Source: Seison nebaliae (taxonomy: Eukaryota). From it: 32,465 nucleotides of DNA. Numbering within the stretch: position 1 is the stretch's first letter; each line of letters opens with the position of its first letter. Positions 3,258 through 27,770 of the stretch are shown one piece after another. Where the stretch lies: positions 1-32,465 of the forward strand of contig JALJEE010000329.1 of the NCBI GenBank assembly GCA_023231475.1, in the 5' to 3' direction. The translations under genes were made by a program, and so were the position numbers. The notes below the pieces were generated by a model. That model did no database searches and was not told the origin of the DNA. It worked only from the letters and a program-made list of their open reading frames with translations.

Positions 3258-4978
3258 TTATTCTTCTCTTTTCATCATTTCTTCAATCTCGTCAATTGTT
3301 CTCGGCACTTTCGTTAGTAATTCATTCCCGTTATAATTTATGTAAACATTGTCTTCAATTCGTATCTATATAAATAGAGTTATTGAAAAGTATTTTTTAT
3401 AATAAATTTTATTATTCTTTTATTACTAACACCACCAAATGATCGATATTCATTAATTTTATCGAAATTTAAATATTCTTTCAATTCTTCGTCCATTTCC
3501 GCTTCTTTCAATAAATGTTCGATGAAATAAATTCCTGGTTCGATGGTGAGAACCATTCCCTTTTCCAACGGACGATTTAATCGTAATGATTTCAATCCTC
3601 GTTCTGTCGATCTCTTCTCATCATTATGATTCTTATATCCACCCACATCGTGAACATCCAAACCCATCAGATGTCCCAAACCGTGAGGCATAAAAATACC
3701 ACCAATTCTTTTCTTAACCATGTCAGATATGATGGAATTTTCCTCTTCATTTTCCTTATCCATTTCGTATGGATCTGATCCATATGGTAAACCGTCGACG
3801 GTGGTACATTCCCCTTCATTCGTCTTCTTTATTGGAAGATGATTTTTTGTCTTCTTTACGAGACCTAAACGGAATAAATGTCGCAATTGAATGGCGTCAG
3901 CTAAACAATGTAGTTTCGACCATTCCATTCCTGGTTTGGCTACTTTGAACACTTGTCTATTCGCTTCCAAAACTGCCAAATAAATATTTTTTTGTTTCTC
4001 TGTAAATTTTCCGTTTGCAGGAAATGATGTGGTAATATCGGAAGCGTATCGATAATATTCACCACCCATATCGAAAAGACACATATCATTATTTTTAATT
4101 AATTTCGAATTAGGCTTACCCGAATGACCATAATGAAGGATTGATCCATTCGTTCCAGTTCCACAAATGCAGGTATAAGAAACGAATCTCATTCCTCCTT
4201 TCGAATAACAATAATGAAGGAATTCACTTTCCATTTCATATTCATATCGTCCCACTCGAATATTCTTCATCACATGACAATGCGCTTCACTGCTGATTTT
4301 GTTCGTATATCTTAAAATTCTCAATTCTTCATCTGATTTTATCAATCGACATTCCACCATCACTCCATGAAGAATCTTCTCATCAATCTCAACATTAGGA
4401 AGACCTTTCAAATATTTCTCATCAATTTTTAATGGCGTTTTCAATCCACTATCTACATTTCTACCATTCAAGAAATAAAGTTTCTTCACTTCTAATTTCT
4501 CTTTCAAAAATTCCACCATTTCACAATCATATAAACAATCCGCTACGGAATAATATTCCTTAAATTGTTTATTAGTCATTAAAGCACCCATCCATGTGGC
4601 ATAAGCTTCAGGTAATTTAGGAGAAAATAAGAATGATTTACCACTTCCCAAATCAATGGCACCGAAAAATCCAGGATCCGTAACACCAAACGCCCAATGG
4701 AAGAAAGTTTCCTGACGGAATAGAATGTCGACATCACTACAATAGATCGGTTGTTCCTCGCCTCCTTTCAACCAAATGACATGGCCAGAAAAATTGTATT
4801 TATCATCTGATGATATCGTTTTTTTTATTGAAGCCATTAATCTCTTTCGATTGTTACCACATAAACCTTTAATATCGATCGGTAACGTATCATTACCCAT
4901 CCAATATTGGGATCTATTATTAGTGGACAATAAGAAATTTCAGTAAAAACTATCAAACTTTTTTTCCGTTTCTGACAT
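3258..4978 (-). CDS. PEPD: Xaa-Pro dipeptidase (prolidase). Exons 4978-4959, 4913-3431, 3365-3258
   Basis: Motifs FRQETFFHWAFG, LHYGH, FDMGGEY..YASDIT, PHGLGH.MGLDVHDVGG and LTIEPGIYF. A 45-nt intron supplies the ATG exon (MSETEKK). A 65-nt intron restores the conserved GG|IRIED...LLTKVPRT C-terminus. Confidence 0.93.
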
Positions 4979-5628
4979 TTTTTTAAAAATTTCTATCTAA
5001 TTTAAGAAATCAAAAAATATTGTACATTTCGTAAAACAAATTTTATTCAAAATAAATCGAGACGAACTAAATTACTTGGATTACTATATAAGTTTCGAAA
5101 GTAAAAGGGAAATCTCATTAACTTTATGTTTCTTAATTTCGACACTTATGAGAGGAATGAGAGGAAAATATTTAGAAATTGTTAGTTAATTATAAATTGT
5201 ATAAATATGACATTTGTTTGACGGGAATTGGGATGATGAGATGAATTAAAGTCCATTACCTCGAAGTCAATGAGATAAGTCAAATGACTTATCAAATCGA
5301 CATGTTTAAAATTGAAATTTTTATGAAATATATACAAAATTTACTTTTATTAAATTAACAAAAAATAAAGTTTTCAAATTTTAATTTAACTATCTTCATA
5401 AAGATCGAAATTGAAATAGAATAAGAAAATAATTATGAATATTTTTCAAATGTATGAAGATATTATTAAAAAATGAAAGCCAAATTTTTAAATCAGAAAA
5501 TTCTAGTTAATTTGATGAATAATAACCGATGAGTTATTTTTGGGTGACTCTATGGTGATTCATGTTACTATGACGATTATATTGCCATCTTCAGAAACTT
5601 TAAAAAACAGAATACGCATGAAAGTCAG

Positions 5629-8600
5629 ATGAATAAAATTGAAGATTATCATATACTTCGAGTCATTGGCGAGGGGTCATTCGCCAAAGTATACAGCGGA
5701 CGAAAAGTTGGTGGTCTAAAAGTTAGTTCTCAACTTTGTTCGAGATTGACAATGTAATTGAATTAGATTGTTGCTTTGAAAGCGATAGTGAAGAAAGGTA
5801 AATCATTGAAAGATTTGAAGACATTGAAAAGTGAGATTGATGTTTTGAAGAATGTTAAACATCCGAATGTCATTCAATTATTCGATTGTAAAGAGAATTC
5901 GGAAGAACTTATTCTCGTAACGGAATATGCTGAGACGGATCTCCATACGATATTGAAAGATGACAAATTTTTTGAGGAAACTGAAGTGAGGCGATTAACG
6001 AAACAATTAATATCAGCTCTTCATTTTCTCCATTCCAATCGAGTACTACATCGTGATTTGAAACCTCAGAATATTCTCTTGTCGAAAGATGGCAATGTAA
6101 AACTATGTGATTTCGGTTTCGCTCGTTTGATGAGTTTCGAGACGATGGTCGTCACCTCAATAAAAGGAACTCCCTTATATATGAGTCCGGAATTGTTGGA
6201 AGAAAAACCGTACGACCATAATGTGGACTTGTGGGCTTTGGGCTGTATCATATTCGAAATGAGAATAGGTCAACCTCCATATTATGCGACAAATTTGTAT
6301 CAATTAATGAAAATAGTTTTGAAAGAAAATATCAAATGGCCATCGAAAGATGTCATGAGTTCTGATTTACAAAGTCTATTAATGCAGTTATTAGAGAGGA
6401 AACCAGAGAACCGATTAACTTGGCCACTTTTATTAGATCATCCTTTTGTGAAGGATGATGGTGATATAATTTTACATTCGTTCGACATATCGAAAGCTCC
6501 TTTAACGGCCGAATTAACAGAAGAACAACGTAATCGAAAGAAGAAACAAATCAAACAATACGAATTAAGAGGATCATCTAATTCGGTATTGGCTAAAGCT
6601 CGACGTCATTATCAGAATGAAACTGAAAATAAAAAGAAACAGAAATTACAATTCGTCGAGAAACAGAGAGAACAGCAAAAGAATCGTATTGCTCAATTAG
6701 CAGCGAAGAATTTTAAATCGGAAACGAAGAAAACAGAAACTGTGAAAGTAAACAAATTAGATGAGACTTTGAAGAAATCCGATTTGGACGAATCGACAGC
6801 GACATTGGCACCTCAAAATAATGAGCAAGAATTAGATTCGATTGATTTGGAACAGATAAATTATAAATCGAATAAAAAAGAATCGTCGTCAGCACCAACA
6901 ACAAATCGTAAAGCTGAATCTATTAAGAATGAGGAAGGGGATGATGATAATTATGAATATATCGATCATGAGAATCATGAAGGAATGGTGAGGAATGAAA
7001 CGAATGAATGGTATACATTATTTGAACGACTAATGTTACTTCATAATGATATGGCGACAGCGGAGACGGATGAAGGAGCCTTACAATCCTTCCAAGAAAT
7101 GGATTCGATAATAATTCCCTTAATATCCAACCAGAAATTCATTGAACAATTTAATGAGATTCTCGAACATAATTTCTTATCATTCAACGAATCCATCAGT
7201 CGATATTTGAACAACGGTCAATTGGAACAATTGATTAATAAGGACCATGTCCAAATGACGAGTAACTTCTTAACGAATCTCTTACATATTGCTCATCTGA
7301 TGTTTCTCCATCTTTTGAAACGACAACAAATGGAAAATGATGATATATATGTGAAACAATTACTCGACTTTCTATACGAACAACAGATATTTGATTTGAT
7401 TGTGAACGAAATCCATTTTCTCCTTCATGGTAATGAGACGATGGATAAACAAATGAATCGAAATGATATTCAAACACTTCTTAATCAAATGCTATTAAAT
7501 GTTCCGAATATTCGAGATGTTCTCTTCGAATCAGTCAACTTCTGTCAACTTTTCCAACAAATTGCACCGTTAGCTAATTTATATTATTCGACGTTAACAG
7601 AATCGAATTATAATATGAAATTCGATCGTGAAAATGATTTCATGAAAAAATTGACAAATCGACATATCTCCAATTTATTGAAATTATGTCGGTCAATGCA
7701 ATCAATATGGAACTTATCGATCATGATCAATATCGATATGTTTCTCTATCAATATTCATTATGTATATTCATTCAAATATTCGAACAAATCGAACAACAA
7801 CCGTTGACAATCGCCAACGAATTCTTCAGTTTCATCTGTCAAACTGACAAACAATCAAAAACTGATTCAATTACTCAATTGAAATCGATTATTACAATCG
7901 CCCTCATTCCATTCACATGGCAAATGACGAGAAATGAGAACAATAAATTTTCGTTGATTCAAACAACGAAAAACCTGGGAAATTTTCAGGAAATCCAATT
8001 CGAAAAATTGTCGTTAGAAGAATTGGAATGTGAGAATATCACTCAATTTAATCATCGATTGAACACCGTGAAAAATTTAGCGGCGACATTGTTAACTGCA
8101 ATGACATTTATGCAAATCGATCATCGAATTGATATAGATCATTATTCGAAAATTCATCCGAATTATTCGAAAGATATCGAATATTGTCGTTGTCAATTCC
8201 GAAATAATATTCAAGAAATATTTGAATGGAAATCTAGCGAGAGATCATTCCCGATAAATTATTCGCAGAAATATGAAATGACGAAAATCATCAGCAGGAA
8301 ATTTGCTGATGGACAACTAAATATTTCAGATTTGTTATTCGATCTCCATCAACCACTCTCCACTTTATCGACGATATTCAAATTTTTGTATTCCTGTTGT
8401 CAGACGTCGAAAGAATTCTGTCGCTACACTCAACGATGTCCTTTAAAGCGATTAATGTTGTTCACATCGAATGTTCCAAGTACAATAAATTATAATAACA
8501 ATAAAGAAATAAGAAATTTATCTTTGCTCCAATATTTTAGTTTGCGACTTTTGGTTTCTCATTTTATTAAGTTTTGAGGAATTTTTAACATTATTTCTTT

Positions 8601-11600
8601 CTAGAGTTCTGCTCAAAACGAGATGGATAACGAATGTTTAAAATTGAGATTGGAAGCATATGAATTATGTACACATTTATATACCGTATGTATATTGAAC
8701 AATCCTGAAGATATTTCTCAAATGTTAAAATTTCCATTTATTTCAAATTTTAATTTCATTTCCAATTTTAGTGATATCAAAATTTGTAATTCACTTTATT
8801 TGAATGGGAGGACGAGTAATATTTGTGGGGGAACATCATTATTATATGGAAGTATTTTAAAGATTATCGATAATCAAAACAGTTCATCAATCCTCATGAA
8901 CATGGGGAAAGGAAAATCGAATAATCTGTACGAATTCAATGAGAAATCAGATCCATTATTCCAATATCTGAACTCGAACGAAGACATCGATATTATTCGT
9001 GATTTGTTAGATGAGAATCAAGGAATTATTATCAATCAAATGGATATTATGAGATCGCTGACTATCGCATTAGCTCCAACAAAGAAACGGACGAATTCTT
9101 TCGAGGAACGAGATTCATTAATCGATGAAAATGAATATATCAAATTATTGATCGATGGAAATTGGAGGAAATTATTCTTTCATTATTATGTCGAATCGAA
9201 TAAATCGAATAATAGTGAACGACGTGGTAGTACGTCGACGGGAAGCAACTCTTTAACATCATCATCATTGGTGGTACCATTGATTCCATTTCCATATAAA
9301 TATGGTGTTGTTGATGGAATTATTTTATTATTACATGCATTATTCGTCGATGAGAATGATTATCTGATGCAGAATGCTTTATTATTCCAAACGGATATTT
9401 TGAATTTACTCGCACAGAAAATTTATCCGTTATTATCATGGTATCGGAATAAAGATTCTTGTGACTTACCACAAAATATCAGTCAATTAAAATATCGATT
9501 CGATCCGTTGTATATGAATGCAATGTCAATTCTCCCCTTATTTCAATTCATTTTTAAGATTTGTGATGATTCTATGAATAATTGTCATACTTTACTTTTC
9601 GGGTTATTCACCGAAAACAAATCGGAGGAAGTCATGTCAACCGATCGAAGTGATACTGATTCGGGAATACAAAATGAATCGAATGCAATTAACGATAATA
9701 ATTCATCTTCATCTTTATGTTTATTTGATCTGATTACGTTAATGATCGATCCAAATATTCTCATCAGTTTATTATTCGAATTGAATGAATATGAGAAGAT
9801 TTCGCAACGATTATCCAATGCTTCAATTACACCGATCTCTTCCAGAATTGCTAATGATTTGATCGAATTAAGAAATCCATTTATGAATATGACATTTAAT
9901 AATTTCTTAAAATTCTCTCATATGCACAATGTTGGAGTGAAGGATTTGTCCGAAAAGATCGTTTCCAATTTATTTCATTCGATTTCCATTATTCTTTGTA
10001 TGCCATTCACTTTATCATATAGCGGTTTTCATTCCTTTCAATTTTATTCTTTTTAAGTTTATATTATTTTTATTTCTTCAGATGAATCGATGAAACAATT
10101 AATTAAACAGTATTATATTGATAAGAAACATTTCCTCTTATCGAATTGTCTGAAGACAATTATCGTTTTACATAATCGAAATATTCCATTCGATATCAGT
10201 GAACCATTGACGATGATGTCGTATCTTTTACGTTTATACGGAAAGGAAATATTGGAACATAATCAGAAGCATTTATTTCAAAGGAAAAAACGTGAAAGTC
10301 CATTTATCAAAGATGTGAAAACGTTCAATAATCTCATTACAAAATCACAAATTATAAAAAAAATATTTTTGTATATTTGGATTATTAATCGATGTTCTAC
10401 ACAAAACACTCAGACGAAAAATAAAAAAGTGGAAATGTATTCGAAGAAGATTTTCAATAATGTTGGTGAATATGAACAGAATTTCTTCTTGACTACCCGA
10501 ATTAGTGAAGACACGTTGAAAGATGAAGATTTTTCAGATTTATCTCAGAAAAAGGATTTGGAGAAATCGATAAGATTACAAAATATTATTACATCCGATT
10601 CATTATCAAAATCATTAATCTTTAGTCTATTTCAAAATATATCAGATGATATGGAAATGAGTGACGATGGTAACGGAAATAACAAATTATCAAATCCAAA
10701 AACTTCATTACGATATTCGTTGCTGAAAAAGAAACTGAATAATGTGAATGATTCTAATATCATTCAAAAATCACTTTATGATTTCCTCTCCATCTTGGAA
10801 TATTTGTTGAGATTGTTCGTGAAGAATCCATTGCACGAAATGACACAACAAAAGAATGATTTAAAAGAGAATGTTTCAATGATTATTTTCAATTCATTTG
10901 AAACGTTCAAATCCATCATCGATTTACTCACAATGGGAATTGAAGGAAAAAATAAAGTTTTATTATTGTCCTCCATCTGTCAACATTCCGATGAGAATCT
11001 AATGGCAATCTCATTTTCTATCGTCTCCCAATTGATTTATATCCAATCAATAATTAATCAACGAATAAATAATAAAGAGAAATCTCAATGTATCTTACAT
11101 AGATTGATGTCAACAAGTGATCTTGAGAAATATTCTTCATTCTTTTCCTTAGATGACCATCCGTTCTCCATGGATATTATCGTGTCAAATTATATGCCAT
11201 ATATTCTCAGCAAATCGTCTCAATCCAAATTATCGATGAAAGTTCAATTAATATTCCATTTATTCATTTTTAAATTTATCATTATTAATTTTTTCTTCTT
11301 CTAGTGGAGTATTATTGTTCTTTATGAAATGATTTATTTTATGGAACATTTATATTACGTGAATAAGAAGATAGTTGAGAATTATTTCATTTTCGAATCA
11401 ACTCCATCCACAACGATATCGAAAAACAAATTGAATATATTCCAATTATACAACATACTCCAATTACCGTTAGTTGATGATATTGTGATGAAAGTGAAAA
11501 TCAAATCATTGGGTTAATAATAAAATTTTCCGATAATGATTACTTAACATTCTCCTTTTCAGAAATATTGGCAAAATTAGCAATTATCCTTCCGGATTTC

Positions 11601-12572
11601 TCGAAATATGTTCGGAGTTCGAGTAGATCGTCGAGTGGTCGACCGACAAGTTCTCGACCGGTTTATCGTTCAAGAAACAGTGAGATTTCGAAAGATGAGA
11701 AATGTATGAATGATCATTTTGCTAATTCTCAAATATTTCGACAACTTTCTCGAATATTTATCTTTCTTATCAGTCTATTACCGGAGGAGAACATCTCCGA
11801 ATCGTACATATCGAACGAAGAGATTCGATTACAAATTTGTATTTTGAACGTTCTCGTCAAATATTGTGAAAGAGATGATGCCATGATCTTTGTTTTTCCC
11901 ATATTAATACAGACGAATATTATGAAATTATTACATTCGGATGACGATTCTCAACCAACTCATTCACGGAGAACATCAATCGATTCAATAAATGGTGAAA
12001 AGACACCATCGATTTCCACTCTAAATCGATTACATGTCAGATTGAAAGTATTATTTAATTATTATATGAAGAAAACTGGAAGATTACGAGCATCTTCTCA
12101 AAAATCTCTTAATGGAATCAAATCCACCATCTCATCATCTTCATCATCAATTTTATTACATCCTGCAAATGATTCCATAATCCATTCAACTGATTCCAAT
12201 GTAACACAAATTACCGGTACCATGAGAAAATATGCAATTAATCGACCCGATTCCTGTAGAAGTGACACATCAAAATCTAATACGAACTTAACAAGAAAAC
12301 CACCCGCCAAATCGAGAACGAATATCAAATCTGCGAATAATCGTCAAAATTCTTCTATGGTTTCTTCCGTTTCTTCATCGAAACTTACGACAGATACATG
12401 TCGATTAGATGATGGGAATTCGTTGAAAATTGAAGGAAAATCAATAAAGAAATGTTTAACAGAACGACGAATACTTTCCGCTCGTACTCCCAGATCGATC
12501 GCTTCTCCCAGAAGTAGAAGTCGCTCAAATTCATCAGCATCAGATCGTCGTCCAAATTTATCAGTTCGGTAA
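5629..12572 (+). CDS. STK36: Fused/STK36 Ser/Thr kinase, ~2,200 aa. Exons 5629-5721, 5767-8553, 8605-8723, 8772-10024, 10082-11241, 11305-11512, 11563-12572
   Basis: Exon 1 supplies IGEGSFAKVY. It is followed by VALK, HRDLKPQN, DFGFAR and the STK36-type TSIKGTPLYMSPELLEEKPYDH..DLW. Five ORFs join in frame through GT-AG introns of 45-63 nt. The 8724-8771 intron is 3n and stopless, so it is less certain. Confidence 0.85.
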
Positions 12573-12641
12573 TATAAAACGAAAATTTTTTTGGTAATTT
12601 ATATAAAAATTTTTGGTGTTTTAATTTTTCGTACAAAATAT

Positions 12642-14495
12642 TTAAGTCAAATTTTTCGGTTGAATTCGCATGCTCTTTTTTTTCCTCCATTTCTTCATAC
12701 GTACCATTAAATTTACGACAACTGAAAATTTCCTAATTCTGCCTTTCTTTAATCGTTCCGAATAATATAAATTCCTCAATTTCGTCGCATCGATTGTTGA
12801 TTGGAGTTGATGTAATCGATTAATGTCGACGAGAGAAATCGCTTGAATTGATGTCCGATGAAACGGATGATGATTGTCGATCTGACTATTATATCTCTTT
12901 GATGTTTCACATAAACTATAAACATTTCTAGATATTCCATTCTCTTCTTCTGTGTGAGAAGATGATCTGGAAAGTGATTCTGTCGTCGATGTTGATGATG
13001 AGGAAGAAGAAGATGATGATAATGATCGATTTAATGATGGTTTATTGCTCTTCGAATTATTTATGAAATTCGCACTCTTCTTCACTTTTGTTGATAAGGG
13101 AGTAGGTGATTGAAATCGTTGACGAATGTATTGACGGAAATGTGGAGTTGCTAAACAATACACAAGAAAATGGAATGCATGATGGATATGGAATAATAAT
13201 TGTGCGATGATATAAAACCGATTACATAAACGCAAATCATTATAAATTATATTCGTTTCACTTAATTGATGAATGAAAACGATTGGTGTACATAGAATGA
13301 TGAAAAAGACGTCGAGTAGAATTAATGTTATGGCGACTTGTTTCCTAGTGGAGGAAGTGGTGCTCAAACTTTTTTGGAGCGTTGTGGAATAACTGTCATT
13401 TCTCAATTTTTTTCTCGTCGTCATATATGAGGTTAATGGTCGAAATCTTCGATTTTTCGCACTCAATTCATTGTCAATCTCTACTTTCTTTATGGAACCG
13501 GACCATCGTTGAAAAATTTTCTGTTTCGTATGATTCAACAATGTTTGTCGACTTTGATGGACACGATGAATAATAGCTATTGAACTGATTGACATGAGAA
13601 TGAATGGGAGATAAACATAGATCATTGCATCTGTATGTACCCAGATTTTGGGTAGGAATGATACGATTTGTTCATCGAAACCACAAAGTAAACAAATCCC
13701 TTTATTTTGATAACCATCAAAATATCGTTCGTTATCTGATCGATTTTCGATTTTTTTAGTTCCATTCTTCTTGTTAGTGCTGTTGAGTTTCAGTTGTTCA
13801 ATAAATTTTAGAATTAATAAAGTAATACTATTCGTCTTGTTATTGTCGAATTGGAAATGTTTGAGAAGGTCCAATAAAATGAATCCGGTTTCCGTCAAAT
13901 TATGAGGATCGGCTGTGATATTACTGATGTTGGAAGTGGGGATAAGACTTGATTCTTTAACGATATTAATTCGATAAAACATAAGAATAGGAGTATTAAT
14001 GAGAGACATCACAATAATCATAAATAATACGATTCTACAAATCTTCTTCCTGAATGAAAATATGAATGCATTCGTATGTTTCATAACAATCACCATTCGA
14101 TCGATTGCCAATCCGATCAATATCCATGAACTGATATCAGTCAAGACGTAGCCCATATATGCATGTAATCGACATCCCCAACTTCCATATAATATTCGAA
14201 CATCCTTCCCAAAGAAGTATCCCGCGATCGTTCTCGGAGCATAAATTACAATCAAAGCGGAATCGACGGTACCTAAACAAGCGAACCATCGATATGCTCT
14301 CATACGTCGTAGATGTTTGAGTCGTATGAGAATACAAGTAACGAGAATATTCCCGATAATTCCAAATGCAATAATTGGTATGAAAAGATATCGGAGATAT
14401 AGAATAAAATTGTCATCCTGGTACCAATGAACTGGATGTACACAAATCGGATCACTTTCCACAAATTTCTGATCAATCGCCTTTTCGATGTCCAT
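12642..14495 (-). CDS. Class A (rhodopsin-family) GPCR, FMRFamide/neuropeptide-receptor-like, 617 aa, intronless
   Basis: Seven hydrophobic segments. TM1 GIIGN, TM2 LGTVD, Cys at the top of TM3 (GCR), TM3 SSW...LAIDRM, TM5 YLPF, TM6 FIILCTP, TM7 FLVYC plus helix 8 (F)R. Long Ser-rich C-tail. Confidence 0.88.
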   Translation of the reverse strand: MDIEKAIDQKFVESDPICVHPVHWYQDDNFILYLRYLFIPIIAFGIIGNILVTCILIRLKHLRRMRAYRWFACLGTVDSALIVIYAPRTIAGYFFGKDVRILYGSWGCRLHAYMGYVLTDISSWILIGLAIDRMVIVMKHTNAFIFSFRKKICRIVLFMIIVMSLINTPILMFYRINIVKESSLIPTSNISNITADPHNLTETGFILLDLLKHFQFDNNKTNSITLLILKFIEQLKLNSTNKKNGTKKIENRSDNERYFDGYQNKGICLLCGFDEQIVSFLPKIWVHTDAMIYVYLPFILMSISSIAIIHRVHQSRQTLLNHTKQKIFQRWSGSIKKVEIDNELSAKNRRFRPLTSYMTTRKKLRNDSYSTTLQKSLSTTSSTRKQVAITLILLDVFFIILCTPIVFIHQLSETNIIYNDLRLCNRFYIIAQLLFHIHHAFHFLVYCLATPHFRQYIRQRFQSPTPLSTKVKKSANFINNSKSNKPSLNRSLSSSSSSSSSTSTTESLSRSSSHTEEENGISRNVYSLCETSKRYNSQIDNHHPFHRTSIQAISLVDINRLHQLQSTIDATKLRNLYYSERLKKGRIRKFSVVVNLMVRMKKWRKKKSMRIQPKNLT

Positions 14496-15076
14496 TATCA
14501 GTATGTGCGGAATGTAAAGGAATAGACTGAAATGACTTCATTCTCTATGCTAAGAGTGGTATGAATTCGTCTTATCTTATCAGAAAATCGAATTTTCATT
14601 AATTATTTTCGTTCTTCAAATTAAAATTTTTCTTTTATTAAAATCCTTTCACATTTCATTGCGTCACTGAACGATGTAGGTTATTGGCCATTTGAAAATT
14701 GAATGAATGAATGTAATTTAATTAAAAAAAAACCTCGTTCACTATCTTTCCGATCATTCATCGCTAACCAGGAAATATCAGTGTGATCAGGAAATAAAGA
14801 AACGTCTTATCAGAACAAATTAAAAATTATCTAATAATTGAACAAATCTCGATCTCAAATTATTTGACCAAATAAAACTTCGAAATAATGTTATTACTTC
14901 ATCGAAATAATTCAACGTCGAGAATAGGCGAAAGATAACAATTTTTTGAAGTAAATTTCATATTATTTGTTTGTCGTGTGAATAGGGTCGAATTAATTAA
15001 ACAAGAATGAAAGTATTATTAATTTTTATCCATCTCTTATGTAATTTTGAAAAGAGATTAAATTCATTTTATCATA

Positions 15077-16377: not shown

Positions 16378-18141
16378 ATGATTCGTTATATTCTATTGAG
16401 TTGCGTACTCTCTTTTATTCCGATCGCTTCCAAACGGGTCATCAAACTAATCATCAACGACAATAATGATATAGTGAAAGTGGAGAATTTGTTGAATTTG
16501 AATAAAATCAATTGGACCGAATTGAAAGAGGTCGATCTGGATAAAATCGAAAGTCTCAAATACAACGAGCATATCAATCGATATGTCTCCATCTATTTCT
16601 CTCCGATGGACACCAATTGGACTTCCATCAATTACAAACGGAAATTATTGGCATCAATTCGATACGAACATAACAACGGATCTAGCCAAATTCGAAATAT
16701 CAATTCTAACGATTTCTCATATTTATTGAATTATGTTAGAATTTGTCTTCTTTCGTTTCTTGAAAATTCCCTAAAGGATTTATTGAACAATGGAACAGCG
16801 AGTAACTTAAACGAATGGATTGAAAGCAAATCATCTGAACAGATACTCATACTTTGCGTCTTCAATCGATATGTGATGGAATTCAATAAATTCTTGTTAT
16901 TTCTCAATTCATCATCGTTGACGTTGCCCTATAAAGTTTGTCTTAACCAAATTTGTGGGCTCAAATTAAATTTTAAATTATTTCCAGTTCTATTCAAATG
17001 TTTTCAATTTATTACAAAACCTGTACGTTTATGAAAAAACGGAAAGAAATTTTATGGATATCAAACGACAATCTCATGCTATTTGTCAGACATGTGGTAT
17101 CTGTCATCATAATAAAACGAGAGTTAACCCGAAGATCAAACATATGAATATGACCATAAAAATGACGCAATCTAAAAACCATAAAAATTCCACTCATATC
17201 ATCTCTAAGGAATTCAATTCGAATTGGTTGTCTATCGATTTTTCTCAGACATTTACTGAAGACGAATATTGTTTGACATTGCCGTTATTGATCCATAAAC
17301 AAGAAGAATATCTATTTGAACAAGACATGAGTCATTCGAAGAATTTCTATGAAATTTGTTACAAAAATTTCACATATTGTTCTTCCTTCAATTGTGTCGC
17401 CTATTTTCGAAGTGTGCAAAAATACGAGTCATGTTGCAAGAAGAATATTTTCTTCGATCGAAAGTTAAAATTTTCTAGATTTGTTTTGTCAATTTCAATA
17501 ATTTTCCAGATTGGTTGAATGGTGGAAGAAGTCGTCAAATGACATTATTAACAAATGTAATTCGACTTTAAAATTATATAATTATTGCAAATTTATTTCA
17601 ACACCTTTCTCCAACTCCAATTCCAAAAATATCGTTTATATTCAATATAATAAGTACATCGAATGGATATCATTAGCTATCATTGTTCTCATAACATTCA
17701 TCATCGTATTGTTGTTACTCTATTGTTGTTTATCGTTCGTTCGACGATATAGACAACGATATCCTTTCAACACCAATCGATCGACGGTTAGACACATTGA
17801 ACGAGTTGCAGCACTTTCCTCCACTGATGATCACCGAGAAGTATCATATGTTCGGAAATATCCACGTCAATTTTGAAAACTTATTAATTTTCTTTCTCCC
17901 ATTTTTCTATCCTCTCCATCACAATACGGTTATAGAACAACATGAAAAGTCGTCGATCGAATCCATCCTTTTTCGAAAGATTCAGACGATGGAGGTATCA
18001 AAATCGAAGAACACCCTTCAATTATGTTCCTGTATCTCCAAATATAGCAGGTTAGATTCTTACTAAAATTTTCTATAATAATCGGAATTATAAAAAGAAA
18101 CGAGATTGATGGATTCGTCGGATGAGGAAGGTCAAAAATGA
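16378..18141 (+). CDS. Orphan single-pass type I membrane protein. Inferred exons 16378-16734, 16777-16935, 16988-17463, 17510-17849, 17936-18050, 18098-18141 (an unspliced form would stop at 17876)
   Basis: Signal peptide MIRYILLSCVLSFIPIA, Cys-containing ectodomain, and TM WISLAIIVLITFIIVLLLLYCCLSFV followed by RRYRQR. Three ORFs join in frame through GT-AG introns of 52 and 46 nt. The first intron and the 3' exons are less certain. Confidence 0.65.
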
Positions 18142-18356
18142 GGAAACATCTCTTTGGACAACACACTCGAATTGACAATTTCAAATCAATGAAAATTAGC
18201 AAATTTATACCTTATAATCATATACAGACCGTTGTTTCTTCGGCATGTTCTTTTTACATCATCAACATCTTCATTATCGTCATTTTTTTAATGAATTTTT
18301 ATCATAATAAAGAAATTTAAAATAAAAATTTTGTTAAATTTATTCGTCGTCTTCAA

Positions 18357-19648
18357 TCATCCACCCCCAAAATCATCAGGGAAACACCGAAATTCTTGTG
18401 ATATTATTAGATGAATGGGAAATTGTGGTGTCTCTTCCACAAAAATTTCGACGGCGCTAAAAATAAGATAAACAAAAAGATGGTGAATTTCTTCTAAATC
18501 ACCTAAAAGAAACTTAATTGATTTGTTTATATTAAATTTAACAGTCGAATTCATTCTCTCAATCATCGGATAAACAATCTATAAACATGTAAACAAAAGA
18601 ATGATCAGTGAATGACATTTATCGATGAGCAGAAACCTCCAATTCACATAATGACAAAGTCAAATGGAAATCATTCGTTGAATTGAGGAAATGTTCATTT
18701 TCATTAAATTGTAGTTTAGTTGATAAACAATTTTTATCGGAATTATTACTGTTGTTCTTCTTATTGTTCGTTGAGTGTTTGATGTATAAATTTTTCGAAT
18801 TATATTTCATTTCCATTTCACCTAAATCTGATGAGGGGAAACTGTTTAAAATTTCTCTAATTTTCCTGAAAAAGAAAATTAAGATGAACATTTGGAGGGA
18901 GAATCGGTTGAGAAAAGTGTGTAGACTTTAAATTCCATACCATCAGATAATCATCTGGGAAATTGACGTTTCTATTCTCTTCATTCCGACATAAAAGATT
19001 AATAAAAATTTTATATCTTATCTTCATATCTTGAAGGAAAAGGATTCGGAATTAGACGAATTTGATGAAAGTTTAACTGTGTACATCCTTTAGTTGGAGA
19101 ATGAAGTCATCACTGCGATGTCCTTCAGTCATTATAACACGTAATTCTTTTGCTCCACCCACATCCACATATGACGAGAAGAATTTGCCAATGCTCTATA
19201 ATTTTTATTTCAATGAGAATTAGACAATTTTCATTCCATATAATTTTTTAAGATTAAATTCCAATTCCTTGGAATGTGCATGGAACCTACTAACTTTCCC
19301 TTCGATGGAACATGACACAAATCGCGTAGGAAAGGAATATGTAATTCTTTTAAATATTCTTTTATCCAATTTGATATTCACTGAAGATTCATTATAAATA
19401 TTCGTTGTGCTAATTCTCAACTATTACATTAATTCCGGTCAATATTCGTTTGAGTTAACAAGAAAAATTTAAACATTCTCATTATCATTGTCATAAGTGA
19501 AAGTAATTAATGAAGTAAATCGACCTAAACATAAAATTATGCGATGGAACACTTGGAAAATGGGAAGAGATTGAAATTAATAAATGAATCAAAAATACAA
19601 ACGATTCAGATAAGATTCATGATCAATCATCAATTCCAATCGACCCAT
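18357..19648 (-). CDS. RAD9: Divergent Rad9 (9-1-1 checkpoint clamp subunit), ~287 aa. Exons 19648-19603, 19551-19475, 19420-19295, 19195-19078, 19029-18927, 18865-18637, 18578-18514, 18456-18357
   Basis: The spliced product MGRLELMIDHESYLNLFHRIILCLGRF...LRISTTN..ESSVNIKL.KRIF...VSCSIEGKSIGKFF...FILQLKD.HNMKIRYKI...IREILNSFP...LSTKLQF...LTLSLCELEIVYPMIERMN is colinear, by eye, with the Rad9 PCNA-like fold. All intron phases are consistent. Confidence 0.72.
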
Positions 19649-20008
19649 CAAGCGTGTATTGAAAGAAAAATAAAAAGATAATTTAGTGGAAATCCATTAA
19701 CACGTTTTAGTGAAGCCATTTATCAAAATTGTTTGTCGCATTTGTAGAATTGAATTAGTCGTAGAAAATTACTAATTCCATCCGAATGACTTGACAATGG
19801 ATTTCCTATGAAATATTCTCCAATTATTTCAATGACGTTATCAAGAATGGAGATGGAAAAGAAATTTTTCCGATTTTATGTTCAGTCATACTTGATTAAT
19901 TCCAACTGATTAATTTGTTTCGACTCTTTATAAAATCATTTTCAGCAATGAAAATAGAATATTTTTTCATTTTAGTCATTTGAGAAAAGAATTCGGGTGA
20001 AATTTAGG

Positions 20009-21758
20009 ATGATTTTCAATTCGATCTTTCCATTCTTTCTCATATCAGTCACTCTCCTAATCAATAACGAACCAACATTCGCCTTCTACGATTTGGGACA
20101 TGCCAGGAAATATTTAACGGAAGAGATTAGTAATCTTCTTTCCAGTTTAATTCCAAAAGGAAATATTTTGGAGAATTTGGATATAAAAACGAATGAGATA
20201 ATTCCCGAATTTCCTCAGAATTCCTATGACGATGAAATTGTAGCAGATAATCATGAAACAATTTCTCACAAACCATACGAAGAGAAAGACAATGATTTGA
20301 GATTTCCCGTCGAATTGACAGATGTGGAAAGGAAGATCATTTCGGATCTCAATTCTCAACAACAATCAAATGAAACATTCCGAGTCAAGAAGAAGTCTCA
20401 TAATATCATCGATTATGAGTCACTTGTCATTAATGCGAAGAAGAATTTCCTGTCGAAATTCCGTACACTTTTCCTCGATCAAATGAACATGACATTGTCG
20501 CCACAACAAGGTGTCGATGCCAATCTAATAAGGAATCTTTATCCGATTAAAACTTTCTTGAAAACGAGACCATCTGATGGAAATCGTTTAACTGACGTCA
20601 GTAACGATTTTCTCAAACCAGATGTTAATTATCCATCTCAAATTTCTATTTTTTCGTGTCGAGGTTAGTGAAACTGTTTCAGACTCATTTTCGCATATCT
20701 GAGGAAATCTTATTAATTTTCTTTTTTTCCAGACGAAGTCGAACGGAAAATTTTCAAATTCAATTTACCTTCATATATTCGTGATGGGAAAGTGGAACTG
20801 CATGCAGCTCGTTTATGGATTTGGGTGAAAAGTAACGAAGAGAAATATATGATGAAACCAGTGACGATGCAAATCAATTTGAAGGTTGGTGATCTTAAAT
20901 GGATTAGTTTCGCTACTCCACAATACGAAGCGAAAGAGTCGTGGACAGAATTACCATTAATTTACAATCATCAAATATTGCGAGAGAAAGGACAGAAACT
21001 AATTCCAATGATGAGTATTCGGGAGAAGAATCCTTTCGCTCACAATCCATCAATCCAAATCGAAATTATTTGTCTCTTGAATAAAGATGAGGATTGTATT
21101 CGATTACCAAAACTAGCGACTAATGCTCAATTGGAAAGTGACGGGGAATCAGTTCGTTTTTTAAAATTAAAAATTTTTTCATTATTTTCATATATTTTAG
21201 GCGCAACCGATATTGAATATTCTCCAAGAATTGAGTCATACTCAAATCGAGAATATGGAATCGGGATTGGAATATATGAAGATGCAAATCAATCGGAAAC
21301 ATCTCACAAAAGATTATGAGAAATATCGGAAAATGTCCAAATGGGAGAATAAGAGAAAAAAGCGTTATGTTGAAAGTCGAAGTCGATGCAACAATTATCG
21401 ATTGAGTAAACAATGTGAGAATGATGATAAGTGTGTATGGTTATTCAACGAAGGATGTGTGGAACGATGTTCAGCGAAGAGCCATTGTTGTAAAATTCCG
21501 ATACGAATCAATTTAGATTTGTTGGATATTTCGGGAATTATCGATCCTGCCATTATTCACACAGCATATTGTATCGGATTATGTGGTCTACATATTTCCA
21601 ACAGTCTCGCCACTTTAGTTGATGCAAAGATCAGTGGAAGAAAATTATGTTGTGCACCTACAGAAACTGATCCAATCTATGTGTATCGCAGTATCAAAGG
21701 AACCGTCTTGTCAAATCAAATCAAAGACGCAATTGTTCTCGATTGCAAATGTATCTAA
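20009..21758 (+). CDS. TGF-beta superfamily ligand, activin/inhibin-beta/myostatin class, ~543 aa. Exons 20009-20663, 20733-21151, 21201-21758
   Basis: Signal peptide, prodomain (FKFNLP...AARLWIWV...SWTEL...QPIL), furin site KRKKR, and cystine knot CC...CIGLC...CCAP...CKC. Introns of 69 and 49 nt join three ORFs in frame. Confidence 0.88.
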
Positions 21759-22252
21759 TATTGACGATGAGGAAATGAATGGAAACGAACACTTCTTTTC
21801 TTTAATTCAACACTTTAATTATTGAACCAACATATTATGGTTATTTACTCAATAAAAGAAAACTATTTCCTTCATCTTCTCACTATCTTGTCATTTTGAA
21901 TTTATGATGAAATTTTATTAGATTATGAATATTCTAAAACTCCTTGAGAATTTCATTAGAATTTAATTTTTTGAAAATTATTCATATTCCAATTCATAAA
22001 TTTGTTTAAGGAGAGAGTTGGTGAATTTATTTGAAAAATAGAAAACGAAAAATATTTTCAGAAAAAGGAGAATTTTCTAAAGTTTATTTGATGGATGTTG
22101 TTGTGCAATTCTTTTTTTTCTTTCATCGTCGAAAAATGAGTAATAAATATACACGAGGAAATTTTGAGATGTTCTCTGAAGATAAAAACGTCGCTTTTCA
22201 GTTGATTTGTTCTAGAAGTAAATTTCCTAATCGATATATATAGATAACATTT

Positions 22253-23383
22253 TCAGAATATTAAGGATTTTATTGATTTCTTCAATTTTCTTGATAGATA
22301 ATTCAGAGACTTCCAAGGACCTGCCGTTACTATTCCTTTCATCGTTTGACCAGTTGACGACGATCGAACAATTTGTTGAATGGAATCTCTTAAAATTAAC
22401 GACATTTGTTGGTCACGTGATAACAATATGAGAATTTCATCCATATCTCGATAGCCTCGATGTGTCAATGATTTGGTGCGATAAGCGAGACCGTTTCGTG
22501 ATGATATTCCATATTGATGACAACGTAACCAGATCGTTCTCAACAAATAATTTGGTAATCGTCTAAGACGTTCGTAGATGTTTTCCTCATCGAAATCTTG
22601 AGTGAAAGTGGCGTTCAAAATAAAGTCGGTCGTTTCTTTCTTATTGTTCGATAACAATAATCGTTTCGCATCAGTTGTATTCCATATTAACGATTTATCG
22701 TTCGCTAAAATATTCGAATAAATTTTGAAAATGTTCAATCGATTCGATTGGAGAATTTTCCGAATTTTATGTCGATCTTCTCCCAAACCAGGAATGATCA
22801 TTCGAACGTCGCCGGAATATGATAGAGAAATGATGGTTTCCAATAATTTATCGATTGTAACATCTTCTTCGTCGAGTAACAATAAAAGTGAAGTATCGAT
22901 TGCTGCTTGTAAATTGATGCGTAAGGCAGTGGACAATTCGGAATTACCAGATGACGGTGGAATGATCCATTGGACTGGTTTGTGTAATCGTCCGGCCATA
23001 TACAAATATTGCCATTTGATCAAATCCTGTATCAAATCATAAGTATCGATAACTCCATATTTGATGAGATGACCATTTTCCATTTGTACTAAAGTATTGT
23101 AGAGAACAGCAGCACCATAATATCGTTGGACATTGGTAATTCGTTCACTTCCACTCCATCGTAAAGGAATGGAAGAATAATGAGTTGAATGTAAATTTAA
23201 ATTATGTTCATGAAATTTCTTCGTATCATCAACAACGAAAATGAAATCGATCATATCATTCTTCTTTGGATGATGTTGTTGTTGTTTTGATGGAGTTGTA
23301 GGAAAGACAGCTGATCCATAAGCGAAGGCCGCTCTGAAATTATATTTAAAAGATTGTACGATCTGTCGATAAATGGAAGTCAT
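22253..23383 (-). CDS. TAMM41: Mitochondrial phosphatidate cytidylyltransferase Tam41
   Basis: AFAYGSAVF, MIDFIFVVD, HYS, IKYGVI...L..DL..W..LY.AGRLHKPV, ISLSYSGDVRM..GED..K and QTMKGIVTAG..KS..Y...KL.K. The first ATG is at 23383; the ORF track begins at an upstream TTG. Confidence 0.92.
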   Translation of the reverse strand: MTSIYRQIVQSFKYNFRAAFAYGSAVFPTTPSKQQQHHPKKNDMIDFIFVVDDTKKFHEHNLNLHSTHYSSIPLRWSGSERITNVQRYYGAAVLYNTLVQMENGHLIKYGVIDTYDLIQDLIKWQYLYMAGRLHKPVQWIIPPSSGNSELSTALRINLQAAIDTSLLLLLDEEDVTIDKLLETIISLSYSGDVRMIIPGLGEDRHKIRKILQSNRLNIFKIYSNILANDKSLIWNTTDAKRLLLSNNKKETTDFILNATFTQDFDEENIYERLRRLPNYLLRTIWLRCHQYGISSRNGLAYRTKSLTHRGYRDMDEILILLSRDQQMSLILRDSIQQIVRSSSTGQTMKGIVTAGPWKSLNYLSRKLKKSIKSLIF

Positions 23384-23458
23384 TATCAACGACAAGAACT
23401 GTACAAATCGTTCATGAAAATAAAAGAGATGTCTCAAACGAACATTTGACGTGAGTGG

Positions 23459-23490
23459 AGAAAGAAAGAAAGAGAGAGAGAGAGTGTGAG
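23459..23490 (+). repeat. Purine (GAAA)/(GA)n tract upstream of the TAM41 start (pyrimidine tract on the coding strand)
   Basis: AGAAAGAAAGAAAGAGAGAGAGAGAG read directly. Confidence 0.7.
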
Positions 23491-23799
23491 GGAAAAAGAT
23501 TTATTCCAACAGGTCACTCATTTCCGCAAATCTGAACAAAAAGAAAATGAAAAAGAAACAGAAAATTTCATAATAGAATAGAAATGGAAGATAAAGTTAA
23601 TTTGAATAAATAAAAATTTTTTCATGGAAAATCTTTCTCGTCATCGACTATCCGAGAATTCCAGAGAACACATGTATACGAATGAAAATATTTGAAAGGA
23701 GAAGTGAATGGTAAATCATCAACTCGACATATATTTTCGTAGAAACATTTCCATAAATATGGAAATTTTTTCATATTATATCCAGAATCTAAATTGGAA

Positions 23800-25923
23800 T
23801 CACTTTCTACTATCAGCAAGTACCTCATCGTAAAAACTAAAAAAAAAAGAGAAGATTTCTTATGGGAATCGGACGGAAAAAAAAAGAAACCTTTCATTAT
23901 TATGAATATGATTTCCTCCTAATATTACCTGACAATTAGAACTATCAACATTCTGGTTAAAACGATGTACAGCCAACGACTCTTCATATGTTACACCACC
24001 AACGATAAAAATGATGATTTCCTTCGGTCTAATTAAAAAAAATATTGATTGGAAAGAAATTCTATAAAATTAAAACGAACTTAAAATTCGTGTTTGATAA
24101 CGAGAAATTATCGGTGACAAATGGATAATTTTTTAAAGATAATTTCCCTCTCCAAATCGAATCCATTATCGTAGTGATGAGAGGCTGATGTTGAAGCAAT
24201 GCATTCTCTACACCCTAGATATGAATAGAAAAAAATGGGAAAAATTACAAAAAAGGTCAATTTAATGATGTTAATTATCGAATTTGAACTTTTAATCCTT
24301 TAATGATTTTCTTTGCTCGATTAACAGTGAATGATTTCAAGAAGATATCCGATTGTCTTGACTTCTTCCCACCATAACTAACGATATGTTTCATGACCTA
24401 AGAAATGTGTTGAAAGTTAAAATATTTTGAGAATGTTCAATAAGAAGAATAATATAACGTCCATATATCGTTCGTCGAGTTGTCGTGCACGTAAAGTTTG
24501 AGCAAAATTGTTTAATTGAGAATTCTCATTCTCATATCTCAACGAATAAATACTAAGAATATTTGTGATATCGGATTGTCGAAGAATGTCCTTCATCTCC
24601 TTCTTTCCACCTTTCTCGATATCGGTCGATATATTCACATTATCATCATCTCCAATTTGTGACGTGGTTGTTGTTGTTGTTGTTGTTGATTTTTGTAAAT
24701 TCAATTTTAATAATTCTTTAATTTTCGAATTGATATCTTGTTGATCTCCATCTGATGCCAATTGTTGTTCCAATTCGGAGACGGACAATAATGAAAATTT
24801 CTGAACTAAATTCGACAATTCACTCACTAAATTGACGTGTCGTGCCACCGTTCCAGAGAGACGTTTATATTCAGGAAAGTCTTGTATGAATTTTTTCATA
24901 TCTTGAATACTCTCCACTTTCTCTTGTTGTTGATGTTTTCTCTCGTAGAATTTCATGAAATTACTGATATTCGTTCCGATCTCTCCAAAATCCAGATACA
25001 TATTCTTCTCATAAAACTCGTCATTTAATGAACTGAGAACGATTTCTGGTGTGTCGGGATTATTGAGAACGACACGATTATTTTTAATAGTGAGTAGATT
25101 GTGTACCATTGCTTGATATGTCCATTGATTGAGTAATGGAGTCACAGTATCTTCTTTGCGATCGATAATGAGAATTAATGATTTTTTCGAATGATCATTA
25201 TTTGATTTGTCGTTTGGTTTGAATAAATTTGAATGTCGATTCATGAGATGATTGAGAGAGATAGCTAACGATTTGCATGATGGTGACGATTCTTGATATC
25301 TGATCAATGCACTTCGATTTAATGATAATAATATGGAGAATAATCCGAAGCAAGTCCTCTTCTGATAATTAGCCGTCCACTCACCAAATTGACGACATAA
25401 TGGAATGTTCAATGTAAATAGATGTGGCGACACTGAATAATAATCGGCGTGTAATTGCATCACATTCCTCACCACTTCGTATTCGTCATGTTCGGCGAAT
25501 TTCCGAATATATTCCATCTCGATAACATTTGAAAAATCTAAAACGTTCAAATTTCATAAATAAAAGAAATAACTGAAAAATTAAACAGATATAATATGAA
25601 TCATATTTGGGTTGTGCTAATTCGGTGCACAAATGATGAATGTTCTGATCAGTCGGACGTATGAAACACAGACATTTCATTCCACGAATAACGTCTCTGT
25701 TCGGTTTGGAGATGAGATCGAATAAGAAAATCTCTTTCGATATCAATTCCGATTGACTGTAAACGAGTGAAACGATACCAATCTGACGTCAACAATTAAT
25801 CGTCTAAATTAAATAAATAAAAGAACGAACTGTTTCCTCGTCCATGAGGAGAACCTTCATTCCATTACCACATTGTGTATAAATGAGTTTGATGTATTCC
25901 CTAATCGCATCAATCAAATTCAT
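23800..25923 (-). CDS. VPS45: Sec1/Munc18 protein Vps45, ~594 aa. Exons 25923-25831, 25782-25587, 25537-24459, 24397-24290, 24214-24081, 24028-23891, 23836-23800
   Basis: MNL..AI.EYI......GMKVLLMD.ET, YSQSEL..KEIFLF, C.CFIRPT, IDRKEDTVTPLLNQWTYQAMVH, KGLKGVEN...QHQP and IIFIVGGVTYEE. Six GT-AG introns of 48-75 nt, all in phase. Confidence 0.94.
24668..24688 (-). repeat. (ACA)n microsatellite encoding a poly-Thr insert in Vps45
   Basis: The GTT repeat on the + strand translates as STTTTTTTTSQ. Confidence 0.85.
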
Positions 25924-26158
25924 TTTTTCAAACACAAAATCTTCTTTTCCAACTCATCAAATCCGTTTATCTATAAGTTGTTATTTTCCTCTCGTGAGAA
26001 CGAATTGAAAGGAAATCTTTTCTTGTTGGAGGTATTTTTATTGAAATTTAATTTCTTCCCACTCCCATGAACTACTCGAATGGCAACAAAAAAATTTATT
26101 TTCTCTTATTTTTTTCAATTTTGAAATTACAAAAATTTTTGGCTTCACATCGAAAATC
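25924..26158. promoter_or_regulatory. Putative bidirectional promoter shared by VPS45 and WDR12
   Basis: The divergent ATGs are only 235 bp apart. This is a positional inference. Confidence 0.55.
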
Positions 26159-27770
26159 ATGTGTGGGGAAAAATCGGATGATAATTCATCATTACTTCAA
26201 ATATCTTTCAAGACTACTGACGACAAGTTGATATTTTTTCTACTTCATTTTCTTCTAATTTCTCTTTCATAGATTACAAGTGAATTCTGATGCCATTGCG
26301 GTGCCAGGAATATTCACCACAAAAAATTTCGATGAATTAATTCAGAAACTTCGTTCCACATCATCCAACGACCAAATACAATTAATTCAATTCAATTATT
26401 TTATTAAAGAAATTCCTATTGAAAATAATTTTCCTTTTATCGATTTTTTGAAGAAGAATGAAATTCCTGTGGAATTAATTACAGAAATACATTATGAAAT
26501 CAAAAAAGATATAAAAGTAGATAATCGAATAAAGACGAATGATTGGATCTCTTCTATTCATTCACTTGATTCTTTAATACTCTGCGCTCTCTATGATAAT
26601 AGTGTATTGTTATTGAATGAGAAAGGAGAATATATCGCCACAGCAACTGGTCATCGAGCGGCTGTCAAATGTGTGAAATGGATAGATAATCATCAGCATG
26701 ACGGTAATATGTCAGGAGAATTTATCTCATCTTCTGATGATGGTAATTCCATCGTATGGAAATGGAATTGTATGTCTAATTCATCAGACGAAGATGAAAA
26801 TATGGAATTGTCTTCTACGAAATACAAAAACGATTTCCAATCACTTAATGTCTGTAAAGGACATACTAAATCGGTTTTAACTTGTTCGTTCGCCCACAAT
26901 AATAGTGATCGAGCATATCGTAAATTGGTGACCGGTGGTTATGACAGAACGATAAAATTATGGAATATCGGTTTAATTTTTAATTTTAATATCTCATTTG
27001 AAAATTATTAAAAAAAAATTTAAAAAAATTTAAATTTATTTGATTATTTAAAGACTTTTTCGACGAGAAAGTTGAAGAATCATCAGCGAAAAAGAAGAAG
27101 AAAGATATCGATATTGGAACGATTGTTTCAATTTTATTTTCAATTTTCCATCTTATTCTTTTAGAGACCTTTAATTACATTAGATGGACACAATGATGCA
27201 ATCACCTGTTTACAATGGACATCGAATAATTCGAATAAATTATATTCTACCTCATTGGATCAGTCGATGAAGATGTGGGATATCGAAGAATGTAAGACAC
27301 TTCAAACAATCGTCTACTTTTATTTTCATTTGTCTTCCATAATCAAATTTCTTCTAGCGCAAATTACAAGGACTATTATGTCTAGATGAAAAACATAATG
27401 AAATATTAGTGGGTGCTACTGATGGGAAAATTCGATTATTAGACATGCGTGCAAATGAAGCTGTCAATTTCTTCGTTTCCAATGAACAAATTTTTACGTC
27501 ACATCGAAATTTTGTGTCAAGTGTAAAATGGTTTAGAAACGAAGATAATCAATTCCTGTCTGGTTCATATGATGGACAAGTGAAAATTTGGGATAAAAGA
27601 AAGTTTTTTGTTTTAATAAAAAAAAATTTTATTTTACTATTTTTAGTCGAAAGAAACCTCTGTCCAACATCATCGGACATGAAGGAAAAGTTTTGAGTGT
27701 GGAATCGAATAAAAATGATAAAATATTCAGTGGAGGCGACGACTGTTTCCTTCACATGTACTCCAAATGA
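26159..27770 (+). CDS. WDR12: Ribosome biogenesis WD40 protein WDR12/Ytm1. Exons 26159-26226, 26273-26970, 27054-27124, 27165-27311, 27358-27602, 27647-27770
   Basis: N-terminal NLE/ubiquitin-like domain (LQISFKT...F.YFI....I...EIHY), DWISSI, YD, GH...VK.V.W, basic KKKK loop, RPLITLDGH, SH..FVSSVKW, SGSYD..VKIWD.R and GHEGKVLSV...SGGDD. Five in-phase introns of 40-83 nt. Confidence 0.9.

Follow-up and report, generated by a model that had tools for sequence, protein, structure and literature searches.

Introns beginning with GTT in the rotifer Seison nebaliae: a possible recoding of the 5' splice site in an animal

Genes of the window and sources of intron evidence

The stretch of DNA analysed here (the window) is the 32,465-nucleotide (nt) contig JALJEE010000329.1 of the marine seisonid rotifer Seison nebaliae (assembly GCA_023231475.1), and our subject is the 5' splice sites (donors) of its introns, which a preliminary description had claimed to begin nearly all with GTT. 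Animal donors are mostly GTR (R, purine; Y, pyrimidine), and in nematodes and flatworms GTT donors form a minority. The DNA is AT-rich and eukaryotic (GC 26-37%), and three of its proteins match NCBI proteins of S. nebaliae at 100% identity. Protein searches at this identity placed PEPD as SNEBB_009618, VPS45 as SNEBB_009626 and a kinase of 2,209 amino acids (aa), model label P0241, as SNEBB_009619; the kinase is presumably STK36/Fused-like. The nameless database protein P0242 maps exactly onto WDR12, and another gene was assigned to the TGF-beta family by a Pfam TGF_beta match. Two further genes, one starting at 16378 on the plus strand and one on the minus strand, are left unnamed. VPS45 and WDR12 lie head to head with their starts 235 bases apart, and one assembled transcript (22001-26154) covers both VPS45 and the downstream TAM41 on the same strand, representing either a co-assembly through overlapping untranslated regions or a two-gene transcript.

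Transcript evidence was taken from the GMAP table of Trinity transcripts in supplementary file 2 of PMC8351084, where at least 12 rows share one contig label with coordinates that fit the window; six of these rows define 16 introns. There was no transcript row for the kinase, WDR12, TGF-beta or 16378 genes among the GMAP rows listed. Sequencing runs matching the window were DNA-like, without splice joints, and have no bearing on expression. Aligners prefer GT..AG termini; we know of no preference on their part for the third intron base. Exact placement of the annotated proteins on the window yielded three introns in PEPD, six in VPS45 and six in the kinase, all GTT, and P0242 yielded five in WDR12 (four GTT, one GTC). 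In addition, an intron predictor with no term for the third intron base (+3), the blind predictor, was built to exclude selection by eye, while a cruder longest-open-reading-frame script, which yielded false GTG and GTA calls, served as a lead only. The donor set comprises 34 donors in seven genes on both strands, 33 of them clear and one, being ambiguous, left out of the counts. The clear donors fall into three tiers, 16 fixed by transcripts, 12 by annotated or database proteins mapped exactly and five called de novo.

Introns and their donors

The transcript-fixed introns all lie on the minus strand, in PEPD, in the second unnamed gene and in VPS45, whose introns are described with their counterparts below. 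In PEPD, introns 3366..3430 (GTTAGT) and 4914..4958 (GTTTGA) are given by both the transcript alignment and the NCBI model. At the 5' end of the gene a single acceptor, 4997, is shared by two donors, one at 5122 (4997..5122, GTTAAT), used by the one transcript path that two rows describe, and one at 5067 (4997..5067, GTTCGT), present in the NCBI model only. Because the transcript donor differs from the NCBI donor, the 22 N-terminal residues by which the annotation extends PEPD may be an error; an ATG at 4978 fits the homologues. Transcript alignment places the introns of the second unnamed gene at 18457..18513 (GTTTCT), 18579..18636 (GTTTCT), 18866..18926 (GTCTAC), 19030..19077 (GTTAAA), 19196..19294 (GTTAGT), 19421..19474 (GTTTAA) and 19552..19602 (GTTTGT). 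Intron 18866..18926, a GTC intron, and intron 4914..4958 of PEPD, a GTT intron, are each kept in one of two isoforms, and retention is therefore uninformative about GTC.

The remaining introns lie on the plus strand. Those of the kinase, 5722..5766 (GTTAGT), 8554..8604 (GTTTCT), 8724..8771 (GTTAAA), 10025..10081 (GTTTTC), 11242..11304 (GTTCAA) and 11513..11562 (GTTAAT), are given by the NCBI model P0241 and by the blind predictor. The exact map of P0242 and the blind predictor agree on the introns of WDR12, which are 26227..26272 (GTTGAT), 26971..27053 (GTTTAA), 27125..27164 (GTTTCA), 27312..27357 (GTCTAC) and 27603..27646 (GTTTTT). Called de novo, and predicted by the blind predictor, were 16936..16987 (GTTTGT), 17464..17509 (GTTAAA) and 18051..18097 (GTTAGA, with the acceptor at 18097 or 18104) in the gene starting at 16378, and 20664..20732 (GTTAGT) and 21152..21200 (GTTCGT) in the TGF-beta family gene. 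The ambiguous donor belongs to a probable intron, 17841..17935, read from the sequence; it had been described as either GTA at 17841 or GTT at 17850, an ambiguity that stands and to which GTC at 17866, the choice of the blind predictor, is now added.

All introns were found where the preliminary description had placed them, with GT..AG termini throughout, and its claim that the donors are nearly all GTT was borne out. The 33 clear donors comprise 31 GTT, two GTC (18926 and 27312, as had been reported) and no GTA or GTG; the earlier count of 30 GTT was right in kind and rises by one since PEPD acceptor 4997 has two donors. Among the transcript-fixed donors 15 of 16 are GTT and one is GTC, all 16 introns having GT..AG termini; 11 of the 16 are free of shift ambiguity, and the other five have a single GT..AG placement. 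The protein-mapped tier holds 11 GTT and one GTC, and the de novo tier is GTT in 5/5. Intron bodies consist of T 49.8%, A 30.0%, C 13.5% and G 6.7% (purine 36.7%), and given this composition the probability of at least 31 T among 33 bases at +3 is 5.8e-8 and that of no purine 2.8e-7, the corresponding values for the 16 transcript-fixed donors alone being 2.4e-4 and 6.6e-4. Base composition alone was thus rejected as the cause of GTT (p ~6e-8). T is preferred over C at +3, with C observed twice against about seven expected (p = 0.018), and 49% of the GTs inside intron bodies have T as the next base.

The blind predictor, applied to the window, made 35 calls in genes scoring above 40, of which 29 were GTT, four GTC, one GTG and one GTA (GTY 33/35); the GTG, the GTA and one of the GTC calls sit where the prediction extends the TGF-beta gene at its 5' end and were judged false. 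Of 26 known introns, eight of which were in its training set, the predictor placed 22 exactly. All 76 calls, which include spurious low-scoring genes, comprise 45 GTT, 13 GTA, 13 GTC and five GTG.

Other donor positions are looser. At the exon end, A occupies -3 in 18 of the 33, -2 in 20 and -1 in 17, with G at -1 in eight, in keeping with the earlier remark that the last exon base is often not G. Donor position +4 is T 15, A 11, C 6 and G 1, and +6 is T 18, A 12 and C 3, so that both are degenerate as had been described; the same was said of +5, which is not fully degenerate (A 13, G 12, C 5, T 3; purine in 25/33). T stands at +8 in 21/33 and at +9 in 24/33, and on average 4.2 of the nine positions of a donor agree with the canonical U1 target. 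Intron lengths range from 40 to 126 nt (median 52). The acceptors are ordinary (TAG 22, CAG 7, AAG 4; T or C at -3 in 29/33) and are preceded by a T-rich run, and most introns hold a loose branch-like motif in their last 40 nt, as expected by chance in AT-rich DNA. The GT..AG termini and YAG acceptor of U2-type introns are present, and the GTRAGT donor fails at +3, where 0/33 have a purine; we infer a variant of the U2-type (major) spliceosomal class. The strict hexamer GUUUGU does not describe these donors, GTTTGT occurring in 2/33. U12-type introns, whose GT donors have the form RTATCCTT, were rejected, since A at +3 and the TCC run are both missing from every donor. The AT-AC form of U12-type donors is given as ATATCC (PMC3033335).

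Comparison with bdelloid-like rotifers

Relatives were sought by scanning metagenomes with an alignment of bdelloid VPS45, which gave 80 loci, three of them rotifer-like, genomic and spliced, with bdelloid proteins as best matches. One of the three (L041) duplicates another (L093) and was dropped, and the remaining 77 loci stand outside the donor counts. The two loci retained, L093 and L088, are probably bdelloid, judging from the alignments. The VPS45 gene of L093 has 11 introns (GTA 8, GTG 1, GTT 2) and that of L088 seven (GTA 4, GTT 3); the spliced alignment, when checked on Seison VPS45, found five of the six true introns and made two false calls. Together the two loci have GTA or GTG in 13/18 donors and GTT in 5/18 (28%), which differs from the Seison donors with a Fisher p of 1.8e-8. 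The blind predictor gave 64 calls on L093, GTA 36, GTT 13, GTG 8 and GTC 7 (GTY 20/64), with 11 training introns included and GTA 28, GTT 11, GTG 7 and GTC 7 without them; Seison and L093 calls differ at p = 5e-10 (Fisher).

Five of the six introns of Seison VPS45, each defined by both transcript and NCBI model, coincide in codon and phase with introns of L093. These are intron 1 (25783..25830, GTTCGT; GTGAGC in L093 and GTTTCT in L088), intron 2 (25538..25586, GTTTAA; GTAAAT in both L093 and L088), intron 3 (24398..24458, GTTATA; GTAAAA in L093), intron 4 (24215..24289, GTTCAA; GTATGT in L093) and intron 5 (24029..24080, GTTCGT; GTATGC in L093). The position of intron 6 (23837..23890, GTTTCT) is absent from the bdelloid-like loci. 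Thus at the five common positions L093 has GTG, GTA, GTA, GTA and GTA and Seison has GTT in 5/5, while L088, which covers two of them, has one GTT and one GTA. Because the common positions carry GTR in L093 and GTT in Seison, old introns have been recoded from GTR to GTT at +3. An introner or transposon-derived intron family was considered and rejected, given the five positions common with L093 and introns that look unrelated by eye.

The bdelloid-like donors (n=18) have A 8, G 5 and T 5 at -1, A 8, T 8 and C 2 at +4, and G 10, A 6 and C 2 at +5, and their introns are AT-rich, 17/18 of them within 47-61 nt. The weak -1 G, the loose +4 and +6 and the short length are therefore common to bdelloid-like introns and not distinctive of Seison, and +3 is the only position that clearly separates the two donor tables. 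The two sets resemble each other in the shortness and AT content of their introns, in the weak -1 G, the loose +4 and +6, the +5 purine and the five common positions; they differ in that the bdelloid-like loci have 13/18 GTA or GTG and 5/18 GTT, whereas Seison has 0/33 GTR. The GTT donor pattern was confirmed as real for the contig and is set apart from the nearest sampled relatives. To extend it to the whole genome is to extrapolate from a single contig of 32 kb.

Searches for small nuclear RNA (snRNA) genes

The window gave no Rfam match. In viral contigs there were 0 U6 matches and five U1-pattern matches, none confirmed by Rfam. Genomes of GTDB contain 19 U6 matches (L006-L024) from other eukaryotes, on contigs (17 scanned) that carry clusters of eukaryotic snRNA, SRP, 5S or tRNA genes; these contigs look like eukaryotic contamination of metagenome-assembled genomes (MAGs). 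A eukaryotic snRNA/5S/SRP repeat was seen in contigs assigned to a bacterial MAG (L006 8028-8187, and also L007, L011 and L021). The Rfam-matched U1 of the repeat lacks the canonical 5' box and differs at several pairing positions, and is possibly a second variant U1, from a eukaryote other than Seison.

Other features of the window

An intronless malic enzyme gene of 427 aa lies at 1915-3198 on the plus strand, with a Pfam match; among proteins of solved structure it is closest to NADP-dependent malic enzymes (E ~1e-140), which we take to be of the bacterial MaeB type, and the gene is a candidate for horizontal transfer. Two tandem trypsin-family genes on the minus strand (27801-28793 and ~28852-29710) have one unspliced transcript row each. 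By eye, the catalytic Ser motif is missing in both and the His also in the second, and because these residues are missing the pair are likely inactive protease homologues. A long inverted repeat, like a foldback element, has arms at 30128-30357 and 30549-30780 that are 97-98% complementary, and the right-hand arm extends over the start of an open reading frame at 30720-30986 with a weak match to mitochondrial ribosomal L37 (E 0.003). An intronless rhodopsin-family GPCR (G protein-coupled receptor) occupies 12642-14495 on the minus strand.

Discussion

A lineage-specific change in the reading of +3 is supported by the transcript-fixed junctions, by the +3-blind predictor and by the GTR-to-GTT recoding at introns common with a bdelloid-like rotifer. 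The preliminary description had proposed a lineage-specific change of recognition, and the altered reading of +3 is the part that stands; the length-based definition of 45-60 nt introns that it offered as a cause was rejected, since equally short bdelloid-like introns retain GTA. The single clear difference at +3 points to one contact. The conserved 5' end of U1 is AUACUUACCUG (PMC3033335), and its position 5 pairs opposite donor +4 (PMC10581693); because position 5 faces +4, position 6 lies opposite +3. Most likely, although we hold this tentatively and at somewhat less than an even case, nucleotide 6 of Seison U1, a conserved U, is now an A. GUU would then pair and GUA would mismatch, and rotifer donors that already tolerated some GUU, as in 5/18 of the bdelloid-like set, could have provided a starting state from which the switch was gradual. 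U5 loop 1 would recognise the A-rich exon end (-2 A in 20/33), and U1 and U6 the +5 purine, as in other rotifers. An A partner at +3 would also fit better than a G partner, because C is scarce there.

Several observations weigh against a changed U1. In an exon-decoy test, in which 18 kb of coding sequence was compared with synonymous-codon shuffles, GTA was found 146 times in sense against 203 expected, and 195 times in antisense against 203; the sense pattern GTA.R was found 12 times after A against 29.5 expected and 11 times after G against 21.8. GTT look-alikes were depleted mainly after A (GTT.R 26 against 41.9, low on the antisense strand too, and another GTT pattern 24 against 37.0) and GTG was not depleted, so GTA-type decoys are avoided at least as strongly as GTT look-alikes. 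The test is small, covers many patterns, ignores codon-pair bias and is made in sequence in which TA is depleted generally. The avoidance of GTA decoys in sense coding sequence, unexpected if U1 were blind to GUA, suggests that GUA sites are still engaged. Furthermore, most lineages with shifted donors have kept a canonical U1, among them Saccharomycotina (PMC10581693), Thecamonas and Micromonas (bioRxiv 10.1101/2022.06.08.495308) and Fritillaria (PMC13326754), and the strict consensus that Entamoeba shows from +4 to +7 is missing in Seison. A single contig was sampled, with two loci as outgroup, and the U1 step is argued by analogy.

These points lend themselves to an arrangement, on balance unlikely, in which a canonical U1 still engages GUA and a later step, the U6 ACAGA box or Prp8/SNRNP27/METTL16, accepts only a pyrimidine at +3; within it, the G of ACAGA opposite +3 would pair U or C, or would itself have changed to A. 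GTA depletion confined to the sense strand is what would be seen if GTA were recognised but harmful, and donor shifts without a change of U1 are the commoner outcome. Roy and Bowser noted that GUUUGU could pair better with an unchanged U6 ACAGA (bioRxiv 10.1101/2022.06.08.495308), and C. elegans SNRP-27 acts on +3 besides +4 (PMC11347140). A G partner, however, should favour C, which is scarce at +3 (p = 0.018), the effects of METTL16 and SNRNP27K centre on +4, where Seison resembles the bdelloid-like donors, and the decoy test lacks a codon-pair control and faces the general depletion of TA. We regard as distinctly less probable a relaxed +3 pairing, or a reduced or lost U1, with proteins (a diverged U1-C or LUC7, or U-binding proteins of the TIA1/Nam8 type) selecting the U-rich starts of short, intron-defined introns. 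The poor match to the canonical U1 target and the T-rich +8 and +9 would agree with it, as would the absence from Seison of ~36% of BUSCO Metazoa genes (PMC8351084), the highly diverged U1-C of Entamoeba (bioRxiv 10.1101/2022.06.08.495308) and the loss of U1 in Cyanidioschyzon that is cited in the literature. Yet the signal sits at one position, +5 is T in 3/33, unlike a U-tract, and bdelloid-like introns as short and AT-rich keep GTA. Finally, that no machinery has changed at all, and that T-rich introns under relaxed selection, a bias of reader or annotation, or an effect local to the contig account for the pattern, seems very improbable. The composition of the intron bodies and the T that follows 49% of internal GTs, the 5/18 GTT donors of the bdelloid-like loci and the single contig examined speak in its favour, but A, the ancestral base and 30% of the intron bodies, is found at +3 in 0/33, transcript-fixed junctions and blind predictor agree, and the same pattern recurs in seven unrelated genes on both strands.

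Taken more broadly, we consider it evenly balanced whether Seison is the first animal to have had its reader of 5' splice sites recoded, by a base change opposite +3 in the otherwise invariant U1 5' end or the U6 ACAGAGA box, while the introns of an intron-rich genome changed in parallel from GTR to GTT, a convergence with Entamoeba. The GTT-dominated donors of Seison are apparently unreported. In the literature searched, mostly open-access, we found no report on Seison splice sites or on a GTT-dominated animal; the parts available of PMC10125929, PMC10639083, PMC7310846, PMC11347140 and PMC6294511 hold no donor data for Seison or acanthocephalans, and the Seison genome paper, in the parts available, treats introns only as a matter of gene compactness (PMC8351084). 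Few features of splicing are as conserved as the +3 purine and the U1 sequence that reads it, and matching changes of the machinery are called elusive in the Entamoeba paper (bioRxiv 10.1101/2022.06.08.495308). If the recoding is true of an intron-rich animal, thousands of old introns and the spliceosome would have moved together, and the intermediate state in relatives (the 28% GTT of the bdelloid-like loci), together with public genome and RNA data, makes the route testable. Gene finders trained on GTRAG may also misjudge the Seison lineage.

Among known systems, Saccharomycotina also show a lineage-level shift at one donor position; there, however, +4 A/U switches are linked to METTL16 and SNRNP27K, +3 varies little, and the U1 and U6 boxes are invariant (PMC10581693). 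Fritillaria borealis is likewise an animal with a genome-wide departure of its splice-site code, but 95% of its introns lie outside GT/AG, it retains a conserved U1 5' end, U6 box and U5 loop 1, and U2AF paralogues and m6A changes are implicated (PMC13326754), whereas Seison retains GT-AG. The closest parallel is Entamoeba, the one documented lineage with U at +3 and a changed U1, whose GUUUGU(U) donors have a co-evolved U1 AACAAAC (ACAAAC box; bioRxiv 10.1101/2022.06.08.495308). Both have U instead of the conserved purine at +3 in nearly all GT-AG introns, an AT-rich genome and a host-associated life. Entamoeba differs in being an intron-poor protist with a strict GUUUGU donor (87.9-89.5%), both +3 and +4 changed and a known U1, while Seison, an animal with several introns per gene, has only +3 fixed and +4 and +6 loose. 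The Seison donors thus represent a recoding of +3 like that of Entamoeba, but in an animal.

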